A stretch of DNA of 64,000 nucleotides, taken from the IMG/VR virus record IMGVR_UViG_2974613666_000001, positions 32,001-96,000 of that record. One strand, given 5' to 3'. This document shows, one piece after another, positions 9,787 to 11,932 of this stretch; positions within the stretch are counted from its first letter, which is position 1; every line of letters starts with the position of its first letter. Both the position numbers and the translations under genes were made by a program. The DNA comes from a virus. Its lineage: Duplodnaviria > Caudoviricetes. Below the pieces are notes generated by a model. That model searched no databases and was not told the DNA's origin. It was given only the letters and a program-made list of their open reading frames with translations.

Positions 9787-9818
9787 ATGTTTTTTGTAAA
9801 TATTGCTTTGTCAGTTTT

Positions 9819-9925
9819 GTTTCGATCCTTATTAGGGATCGTGCCTTTGTTATAACTCCTATTTAGAAAATCAGGTAATACTGTTTCTGTTTCAATCCTT
9901 TATAGGGTTATAGCATTTTTATAGT
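9819..9925 (-). CRISPR. Degenerate two-repeat, one-spacer CRISPR-like mini-array with no cas genes in the window
   Basis: Minus strand: ACTATAAAAATGCTATAACCCTATAAAGGATTGAAAC (37 nt), a 32-nt spacer, then GTTATAACAAAGGCACGATCCCTAATAAGGATCGAAAC (38 nt). The 3' halves resemble cyanobacterial repeats ending AATCCCTATTAGGGATTGAAAC. Confidence 0.6.
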
Positions 9926-9990
9926 TTATTAAGTTTATAGTGGTCTAAAGCCCTACCATTTAAGATATACCATTTATTTTACAATTAATG

Positions 9991-10019
9991 TTGCTATTTT
10001 GTAAAATATCTAGTATACT
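9991..10019 (+). promoter_or_regulatory. Promoter upstream of tnpB
   Basis: TTGCTA-N17-TATACT. Confidence 0.55.
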
Positions 10020-10048
10020 TGAAGCAACAACATTAGCATCAGGTCGAA

Positions 10049-11236
10049 ATGCTTAATCTTACTTACACCTACAAATTACAACCAACAGCGAAACAGATAG
10101 AAACCATAGAGCATAATCTCAACGTGTGTAAGTCTGTTTGGAACTATGCTCTATACGTCAGAAAGCTCTGGTACAATAGCCGTAGTTGTAAGATTAACCA
10201 ATGCTCTCTATTTCAGGAATATGTTGTTGAACCTTTTGAGTATCCTAACTACCATACTAAGTCTTCTGAATTAACACTTGCTAAAAAGACTAATCCTTTT
10301 CTTAAATCTGGTAATGCCCAAGCCATGCAGCAGACATTACGTAAGTTGGATAGAGCATTCAATGATATGAAGTCTAGAGGAATGGGGTTTCCTAGATACA
10401 AGAAAAAGATGAAGTCTTTTAATTTGTTAGGAGGTATATCAGTTCAAGGAAATATACTCAAGATGCCTCTACTTAAAGAGGTTAAGTTTAGAAAGTCAAG
10501 AGAAATTCCAGAAGGGTTCAAGGCTAAGCAAGTACAAATCATTAAAAAGGCAAGCGGTTACTACGCTAATTTAATGATAGAGCTTGATGTTAATGTTGCT
10601 AGTCCTACACCTCATGGTCATGCCTTGGGGATTGATGTAGGTATTCAAAACATGATAGCAACTTCCGACGGGTTGACGCTAAAAAGACCTAAGTTCCTAG
10701 ATAAAGCACTGCGTAAGATTAAATTACTACAAAGGAAGCTTAAAAAGAAAACTATTGGGTCTAATAACTGGAGAAGTCTGCAACATCGGATTGCTTTGTT
10801 ACATGAGGCTGTAGCAAATAGGCGTAAAGATTACCATTTTAAATTAGCTCACCAGTTGTGCGGAAATTCGGGAATGATATTTGTTGAAGATATTAACTTT
10901 GTAGCTTGGAGCAAAGGTTCATTTTCAAAACAGTCTCTAGATATGTGTCTAGGTCAATTCTTCAACATCCTTGAGTATGTCTGCTCTCAGACTGACACCT
11001 ACTTCAGTAAAGTAGATAAAAACTACACTTCTCAGATTTGCCCTAATTGTGGAACTCACACAGGTAAAAAAGACCTAAGTGTGAGGGTGCATAAATGTTC
11101 TGAATGTGGGTATGAGCGAGATAGAGACATAGCTGCTGCTGAAGTAATAAGAAATAGGGGTTTAGATAATATTGCGGTAGGAACTGCCGTGATTAAACAG
11201 TCCAGTAATGGCGTTCTAGCGGGGACTTCGGTCTAG
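10049..11236 (+). CDS. tnpB: TnpB RNA-guided endonuclease (IS200/IS605, IS1341-type)
   Basis: N-terminal YKLQPT motif, RuvC GIDVG / FVEDIN / DRDIAAA, and zinc finger CPNC..CSEC. A right-end hairpin and TTCAA lie at 11276-11280. Confidence 0.95.
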   Translation: MLNLTYTYKLQPTAKQIETIEHNLNVCKSVWNYALYVRKLWYNSRSCKINQCSLFQEYVVEPFEYPNYHTKSSELTLAKKTNPFLKSGNAQAMQQTLRKLDRAFNDMKSRGMGFPRYKKKMKSFNLLGGISVQGNILKMPLLKEVKFRKSREIPEGFKAKQVQIIKKASGYYANLMIELDVNVASPTPHGHALGIDVGIQNMIATSDGLTLKRPKFLDKALRKIKLLQRKLKKKTIGSNNWRSLQHRIALLHEAVANRRKDYHFKLAHQLCGNSGMIFVEDINFVAWSKGSFSKQSLDMCLGQFFNILEYVCSQTDTYFSKVDKNYTSQICPNCGTHTGKKDLSVRVHKCSECGYERDRDIAAAEVIRNRGLDNIAVGTAVIKQSSNGVLAGTSV

Positions 11237-11415
11237 TTAAGAGTCTAAATGGGAATCCCTTATCTTTAAGGGAAGTTCAACCTAATGAGCTTCTTGCTTC
11301 TCCTTTCAGTTTCAATCACTGATAAGGGTTATAGAGTTTTTTCTGCCAAAACATATAAATTTCCGAAGATAAAATATAGTCTAGGTCAAATAATTGGCAC
11401 AAAGCTCAAAAGAAA

Positions 11416-11895
11416 GTGGCAAAATTGCATGAACATATTGCTAATACTAGAAAGGACTTTCATTGGAAAATAGCACATCAACTTTGTGATACTGCTCAAA
11501 CTATCTTTGTAGAAGATTTGAATTTAGTGGGATTGTCCAGGGGAATACTTGGCAAGCATTGTCTAGATGCTGGATGGGGACAATTCTTTGAAATTCTGGA
11601 GCAGTGTTGTTTTAAGCGTGGTGTATTTTTCCAGAAAGTAGATAGCCGAAAGACTTCTCAGATTTGCCCTAATTGTAGAATAGAAACGGGTAAAAAAGAG
11701 TTGTCACAGCGTGTTCATGTTTGTGAACATTGTGGCTATACAACTGATAGAGATGTTGCAGCCGCTCAAGTAGTTCTGATTAGAGGACTTGCAGCCGTCG
11801 GGCAGACGGTAAATATGCTTGCTGAGGGTAAATTCGTTGGAATCCCTGTGACGCAAGAATCCCCCCGGCTAGAAGCCGGGGGGAGTGTCAAGTGA
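11416..11895 (+). pseudogene. tnpB: C-terminal fragment of a second TnpB with an intact right end
   Basis: Has FVEDLN, CPNC..CEHC and DRDVAAA but lacks the N-terminus and RuvC-I. Right end is CCCCCCGGCTAGAAGCCGGGGGGAGTGTCAA, ending at 11891. Confidence 0.85.
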
Positions 11896-11932
11896 ATCTT
11901 GATTTAGATGTAGCGTTGGATGAACACGAATA

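Follow-up and report, generated by a model that had tools for sequence, protein, structure and literature searches.

The window analysed here, a stretch of 64,000 nt, comprises bases 32001-96000 of a 145.4-kb virus record that is complete according to CheckV. Among the isolates of the phage collection, Nodularia phage vB_NspS-kac65v162 (Ravarandavirus, Baltic Sea) comes closest to it. Between a large RNA gene and a DUF4326 gene, a block of the window (9806-11930) replaces the RNA ligase gene of kac65v162, and the DNA immediately to the left of the array contained in this block is ~72% identical to that phage. The block carries three CRISPR-like repeats and two TnpB elements, as follows (positions are those of the window):

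9819-9856, minus strand: repeat B, leader-distal, GTTATAACAAAGGCACGATCCCTAATAAGGATCGAAAC; the sole repeat in which the hairpin is retained
9857-9888, minus strand: spacer 2, 32 nt, AGAAACAGTATTACCTGATTTTCTAAATAGGA; target search negative
9889-9925, minus strand: repeat A, ACTATAAAAATGCTATAACCCTATAAAGGATTGAAAC; handle ATTGAAAC intact, hairpin down to 3 bp
9926-9929, minus strand: presumed left piece of spacer 1 (boundary +/-1 nt)
about 9930-11280, plus strand: IS1, a TnpB-only IS200/IS605-type element
9930-9971, plus strand: left end of IS1, decayed
9976-10007, both directions: palindromic promoter (consensus) of IS1
10049-11236, plus strand: tnpB of IS1, 395 aa
up to 11280, plus strand: right end of IS1 and omega-RNA end, ...GGGAAGTTCAA
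11281-11308, minus strand: right piece of spacer 1, 28 nt; its plus strand is the would-be omega-RNA guide of IS1
11309-11345, minus strand: repeat R3, leader-proximal, CAGAAAAAACTCTATAACCCTTATCAGTGATTGAAAC; no hairpin, best genome-wide match of A
11346-11383, minus strand: 38 nt upstream of R3, at the position of a leader; motif ACCTTGAAAAC absent
11384-11895, plus strand: IS2, a 5'-truncated second TnpB element (ORF 11416-11895, Pfam)

Repeats, spacers and genomic setting

A preliminary description of this DNA had reported two minus-strand repeats separated by a 32-nt spacer, and A, spacer 2 and B were indeed found with the coordinates and sequences given there. The motif GGATYGAAAC, common to both repeats, occurs at only these 2 sites in 64 kb (0.14 expected). 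We aligned each repeat exhaustively with every 37-mer on both strands of the 145.4-kb phage genome. The pair does not stand alone, as had been assumed: a third repeat, R3, is located on the same strand 1.4 kb from the A/B pair, beyond the TnpB insertion sequence. R3, A and B are reciprocal best matches genome-wide, and all of them lie on one strand within 1.5 kb; the scores were 16 for A and R3 (28/38) and 14-15 for A and B, compared with 12 for the best unrelated 37-mer. Their pairwise identities (A-R3, 74%; A-B, 71%; B-R3, 62%) fall short of the near-identity of repeats in arrays.

The spacing of the repeats is regular. The period from A to B is 70 nt, and that from R3 to A is 69-70 nt after removal of IS1. 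Without IS1, spacer 1 consists of 4-5 nt (TTAT/TTTAT) on one side and 28 nt on the other, i.e., 32-33 nt, matching the 32 nt of spacer 2. On the basis of this restored spacer and period, the locus is therefore read as R3, spacer 1, A, spacer 2 and B, a three-repeat array with an insertion sequence inside one spacer, in which the right edge of the insertion sequence is seen directly and the left edge is a predicted one.

The hairpin that had been described as retained in the repeats is present in B and has been largely lost in A. B folds with -7.7 kcal/mol (z -3.0) into a 6-bp stem, CGAUCC/GGAUCG, which has a G-C pair at the position of an A-U pair in the family. The corresponding values were -1.8 kcal/mol (3 bp) for A, 0 (no stem) for R3 and -10 for a host repeat. 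The 8-nt handle is conserved at 23/24 positions versus 31/40 in the hairpin block; this difference is not significant (p 0.076) and is subject to ascertainment bias, since the repeats were found via the handle motif itself.

The Cas6 and Cas1 Pfam families gave zero matches across the whole phage genome (145.4 kb). No second copy of IS1 or IS2 is present in the phage genome, and no repeat-like sequence was detected in a 12-kb stretch of kac65v162 around the corresponding position. With the neighbouring DUF4326 protein as a query for closer phage relatives, the best proteins were just 21-31% identical. The RNA ligase gene of kac65v162 (gp053; L006 6423-7247) directly adjoins the promoter of the large non-coding RNA gene; in the window phage, this gene has been lost to the block of array and insertion sequences.

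Insertion sequences and flanks of the array

The TnpB protein of IS1 has the Pfam domains OrfB_IS605, Cas12f1-like_TNB and HTH, the RuvC motifs GIDVG, VEDIN and RDRD and two CxxC pairs (zinc finger), and it is related to the TnpB of ISDra2 (E 1.6e-28). Its relatives with 72-83% amino-acid identity occur in Pleurocapsales, Chroococcales and other cyanobacteria, often several per genome, which shows that IS1 is an ordinary mobile element. Nucleotide homology between IS1 and these relatives spans about 9969 to 11260. When we aligned the 3' flanks of 30 relatives, all copies terminated with GGGAATCCCT, a short hairpin and then GGGAGGTTCAA. The right end in the window reads GGGAATCCCT-TATCTTTAA-GGGAAGTTCAA and stops at 11280, as in the 30 relatives. 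The left ends of the relatives are composed of TTTATC, a GC-rich hairpin and the palindrome TTTACAA...TTGTAAA; of these, IS1 keeps TTTAT and the palindrome, the hairpin has decayed, and the alignment to the relatives is weak (z about 2). The length of the left end (50 nt) is consistent with the shortest relatives (53-59 nt), and the plus-strand TTTAT at 9925-9929, a TAM-like target motif, adjoins it. RuvC and zinc-finger motifs, a conserved right end and multicopy relatives together identify IS1 as a TnpB-only element of the IS200/IS605 type.

None of the 30 left ends contains the array repeats, and none of 80 relatives of the IS1 TnpB has an array within 3 kb. This indicates that the repeats are not part of the insertion sequence and that a linkage of TnpB and array is not conserved in this group. 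We had also considered the repeats as left-end hairpins of the insertion sequence, a candidate that was rejected because the relatives carry a different, GC-rich hairpin and no such repeats.

IS2 represents the 3' two-thirds of a TnpB element and severs the leader side of the array. Merely 38 unrelated nt separate R3 from the truncated IS2, and no conserved leader was found upstream of R3 in a comparison with the leaders of the host, of Nostoc phage N-1 (N1) and of phage YongM. A candidate leader motif upstream of R3, ACCT.GA, was dropped, as it is partly IS2 sequence. IS2 shares 98.8% identity with gp193, a full-length transposase encoded at a different site in kac65v162 (L106 2277-3518), and 99% with a copy in a Nodularia spumigena-like genome, G547 (G547:C1:498120-498626); further copies have 94% and 91% identity (genomes G411 and G695). 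The identity of 98.8-99% across phages and a chromosome points to recent traffic of insertion sequences between host and phages.

A consensus scan for promoters revealed TTTACA-18-TAAAAT, a pattern match, in either orientation of the IS1 palindrome. Transcription from the minus-strand consensus (10005-9976) would pass through A, spacer 2 and B; this promoter consensus is the one nearest to B, 120-150 nt upstream and within IS1. Downstream of this read-out lies the promoter of the neighbouring large non-coding RNA (9786-9757). Promoter-like sites in the whole region were no more frequent than in shuffles. On the plus strand, the B hairpin is followed by TGCCTTTGTT (9823-9851), a combination with a weak intrinsic-terminator-like score; no plus-strand gene ends there. 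The palindrome (TTTACAA-N-TTGTAAA) is conserved in the IS1 family and provides sigma-70-like hexamers both ways (9976-10007 in the window; L007-L042 in relatives). Elements of this family may therefore drive outward transcription into the DNA to their left.

Repeat family, host systems and spacer targets

The phage repeats belong to the DR5/type I-D family, with which they share the core ATCCCTATTAGGGATTGAAAC and the handle; 'DR5 (type I-D)' is a published repeat family (PMC4916379). As a query, we used a degenerate 19-mer drawn from A and B, with one mismatch allowed. It finds CCCTATTAGGGATTGAAAC, which recurs every 70-75 nt in long arrays; these were seen in a Rivularia genome and in 108 of the 401 genomes of its order, with almost no matches for the reversed-pattern control. 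The phage repeats match the I-D core at 17-18 of 19 positions. Compared with a full DR5 repeat (from genome G320; example GTTGCAACTAAAACGAATCCCTATTAGGGATTGAAAC), B is identical at 29/39 positions, the GTT..AAC start included, a score that was reached by 0 of 20000 random 37-mers. Over their whole length, the phage repeats have 61-74% identity to the family. In G411, a DR5-family array adjoins Cas1, Cas4, Cas6, Csc2 and a 1159-aa ORF of the size of Cas10d, and we conclude that this is a type I-D cassette. The core match, the 108 of 401 genomes and this cassette thus bear out the earlier assignment of the repeats to CRISPR-derived cyanobacterial type I-D repeats. Judged by its sequence, this locus of a Baltic Nodularia-type cyanophage is a CRISPR array without cas genes whose repeats are of the cyanobacterial type I-D family.

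The variant shared by A and R3, TAACCCT...GATTGAAAC, was found in no array of 389 Nostocaceae genomes (7 single matches versus 14 for the control), and the A/R3-specific pattern gave chance matches only in IMG/VR and the metagenome collection. Its absence from host arrays suggests that the variant was derived by mutation and is not native. Core matches of the 19-mer in IMG/VR were discarded as chance, since all three fell within coding sequences or promoters, outside any array. The Rivularia genome (G001) contains isolated degenerate pairs of DR5-type repeats away from its big arrays (C1:2296425-2296552, 4242352-4242519, 5449796-5449887); these are apparent host counterparts of decayed mini-arrays.

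The two repeat types of the G547 arrays, TTCCCCTAACGGGGATGGAAAC and TTCCCCGCAAGGGGACGGAAAC, coincide exactly with those published for Nodularia spumigena (PMC5853447), and we therefore take G547 as this species or a close relative. In this reference genome, which may not be the host of the phage, Csc2 and DR5-family arrays are absent and only III-B arrays are present, whereas type I-D is present in G411 and G695, the related genomes with IS2 copies. The expected likeness to host repeats extends to the I-D family of Nostocaceae but not to the III-B repeats of G547, which are just 46-62% identical to the phage repeats and, compared with B (55-61% identity), differ in the stem sequence.

The search for spacer targets, suggested by the preliminary description as a check, returned none that was credible in phage records, IMG/VR, Nostocaceae genomes or sampled cas loci. 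Against 50,697 phage records, spacers 1 and 2 gave chance matches in unrelated phages (E 0.08 or worse). With 20- to 23-mers of both spacers, IMG/VR yielded nothing beyond four exact 20-mer matches that did not extend (8-10 of the 12 remaining nt mismatched). In 389 Nostocaceae genomes, spacer 2 had no match even when 3 mismatches were allowed, and the matches of both spacers to the phage's own genome and to sampled I-D and III-B cas loci were not above those of shuffled spacers. Conversely, none of 136 spacers from the arrays of G547, G411 and G001 matched the phage (longest match, 22 nt).

Interpretation and relation to known systems

With three degenerate repeats, no leader and a TnpB transposon within a spacer, the array is more likely a relic than a working weapon. 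The explanation that we favour, with moderate confidence, is that the locus is an inactive, decaying remnant of a cas-less DR5/type I-D array. Its ancestor would have had the minus-strand order leader, R3, spacer 1, A, spacer 2, B with a 70-nt period. IS1 would have transposed into spacer 1 beside the TTTAT motif, IS2 together with a deletion would have removed the leader, and the repeats would have drifted until B alone could form a Cas6-type hairpin. A canonical crRNA is most likely no longer made, and the remnant is probably kept passively in a variable hotspot of morons and insertion sequences. Several points run counter to this reading: the better preservation of the handle, albeit not significant, the 6-bp stem of B, the minus-strand promoter consensus in IS1, the ability of Anabaena Cas6 enzymes to cut divergent repeats (10.1101/2020.04.14.041012), and published phage arrays that likewise have no identifiable targets (PMC4916379).

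In a functional mini-array, the outward promoter of IS1 would drive transcription of A, spacer 2 and B, a host Cas6 (of the I-D type, or a type III enzyme that cross-reacts) would cut the transcript, and the crRNA, beginning with AUUGAAAC followed by spacer 2, would enter host effectors against a competing phage or plasmid. The intact handle ATTGAAAC of A, the hairpin of B and the minus-strand consensus at 10005-9976 are consistent with this, as are the perfect repeat-spacer-repeat unit of YongM and the array of the same family in N-1, which is transcribed and whose repeat is cut by host I-D and III-D Cas6 (PMC4916379; 10.1101/2020.04.14.041012). However, A must be cut to provide the 5' handle, yet its stem has 3 bp; A and B are 71% alike, and the native leader is absent. 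Moreover, searches of 50,697 phage records, IMG/VR, 389 Nostocaceae genomes and the phage's own sequence yielded no protospacer, an I-D system is lacking in the N. spumigena-like reference genome, and kac65v162 does not carry the array. Processing and use of the array via a host Cas6, as proposed in the preliminary description, is therefore unlikely for an array with degenerate repeats (two of three hairpinless) that is leaderless, split by an insertion sequence and for which the searches gave no protospacer, with G547 lacking I-D. It is similarly doubtful that the locus acts as a decoy of the RNA anti-CRISPR or solitary-repeat type, in which transcripts of B (hairpin and AUCGAAAC), perhaps also of A, would divert host Cas6 or backbone subunits. 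RNA anti-CRISPRs (Racrs) from viruses imitate repeats and thereby sequester Cas6 and Cas7 (PMC10651486), Cas6 enzymes and repeats of Anabaena recognise each other across the type III and I-D systems (10.1101/2020.04.14.041012), B retains a stable hairpin and handle amid decaying neighbours, and the handle is kept across all three repeats. Yet the trend in the handle falls short of significance and suffers from ascertainment bias, B has no promoter consensus immediately upstream (the nearest, in IS1, is 120-150 nt away), the cognate I-D system is missing in the N. spumigena-like reference, whose III-B stems differ (55-61% identity to B), and the element is not conserved in kac65v162, the sole related phage compared.

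A partnership of TnpB and array of the type V-U kind, in which TnpB uses the array or the former spacer 1 serves as an omega-RNA guide, would provide the phage with a Cas-independent RNA-guided nuclease. IS1 encodes an intact TnpB with RuvC and zinc-finger motifs, the 28 nt past its right end are spacer sequence, the TAM-like TTTAT comes from the same former spacer, and the array of cyanophage vB_AphaS-CL131 beside a TnpB gene was called V-U2 (PMC6293099). Against this, the repeats and tnpB are on opposite strands, 0 of 80 TnpB relatives have an array within 3 kb, and IS1 is an ordinary multicopy insertion sequence with its own conserved omega-RNA end, for whose guide no target was found. Since every TnpB guide corresponds to the insertion site of the element, the link to a spacer follows automatically from where IS1 landed. 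We thus consider the partnership very unlikely, and would give as little weight to the specific proposal that the landing of IS1 turned the rest of the spacer (11281-11300) into an omega-RNA guide aimed at the old CRISPR target, with TTTAT as TAM-like motif. Least probable is that the repeats are not CRISPR-derived at all and result from chance resemblance or from structures of the left end. The left end of IS1 does adjoin A, and the repeats are AT-rich and degenerate, but in 30 relatives the left end forms another, GC-rich hairpin and lacks the repeats, R3 lies beyond the right end, and the 70-nt period, the match to the I-D core at 17-18 of 19 positions and the reciprocal best matches across 145 kb have already largely refuted this explanation.

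With this locus, cas-less arrays of the type I-D family are known from a large Baltic Nodularia-type siphophage in addition to the Nostoc myophages N-1 and YongM. The locus illustrates a decay state of such arrays, which is useful when viral mini-arrays or RNA anti-CRISPRs are called from sequence alone. It also documents at base level a case of TnpB transposition into a CRISPR spacer, and such an insertion is a simple explanation for the TnpB-array adjacency in cyanophages that has been read as 'type V-U'. On a current view, type V systems arose from TnpB elements located beside arrays; if the guide reading were true, the phage would own a Cas-independent RNA-guided nuclease and the locus would be a snapshot of the first step in the origin of type V. 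We know of no RNA inhibitor of cyanobacterial I-D or III systems, for which the remnant would be a candidate decoy if it were expressed and bound by host Cas proteins.

The closest known counterparts are the cas-less array of Nostoc cyanophage N-1 described by Chenard et al. 2016 (PMC4916379) and that of YongM (MT426122). N-1 has five near-identical DR5-family repeats, and YongM a perfect repeat-spacer-repeat unit; both arrays have a promoter and the leader ACCTTGAAAACCAAATA, the same leader as in host arrays. Infection is accompanied by transcription of the N-1 array (PMC4916379). Of the Anabaena Cas6 enzymes, Alr1566 (I-D) cuts the N-1 repeat, and Alr1482 (III-D) does so with weaker activity (10.1101/2020.04.14.041012). 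Anabaena Cas6 enzymes act on repeats with an identity of just 73-84%, and I-D repeats are cross-cleaved by the III-D enzyme (10.1101/2020.04.14.041012). Like these two arrays, the locus studied here has DR5/type I-D repeats with the core ATCCCTAT[TC]AGGGATTGAAAC, 37-nt repeats and spacers of about 32-37 nt; all three are cas-less, belong to phages of filamentous heterocystous cyanobacteria and have spacers whose targets are not identifiable, as is the case for published phage arrays (PMC4916379). In contrast to the near-identical repeats, full hairpin, promoter and leader ACCTTGAAAACCAAATA of N-1 and YongM, the array of the Nodularia-type phage has repeats of 62-74% identity, one hairpin, no leader, an insertion sequence in a spacer and a truncated one at the leader side.

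Host I-D arrays, such as those with the group 2 repeats of Anabaena PCC 7120 (Cas6 Alr1566; 10.1101/2020.04.14.041012), share the 3' core and the handle ATTGAAAC, but consist of tens to hundreds of identical repeats, and the A/R3 variant AACCCT was present in no sampled host array. The RNA anti-CRISPRs and viral solitary repeat units (Camara-Wilpert et al. 2023, PMC10651486) are likewise viral and cas-less, and B resembles them in keeping hairpin and handle; the phage locus differs in having three units with spacers instead of a solitary one, lacks an adjacent promoter and is known from its sequence. CL131 (V-U2, PMC6293099) is also a cyanophage of the Baltic region with an array and TnpB side by side. 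In its array, however, a 36-nt repeat of an unrelated family (CTTGCCAACTATATGACATCCTGCGGGCATCCTAAC) recurs in 11 near-identical copies, and the TnpB gene is beside the array, whereas the TnpB element in the window interrupts a spacer, is encoded on the opposite strand and is demonstrably an insertion sequence. In CL131 (MG209611; L167 1751-2515, 2770 onward), the array ends about 250 nt from the 3' end of the TnpB gene, so that the omega-RNA-encoding side of TnpB faces the array. With the transcribed, Cas6-cut array of N-1 and the unit of YongM, the kind of element, a cas-less I-D-family phage array, is already published; what is new is a degenerate example that has been split by an insertion sequence.
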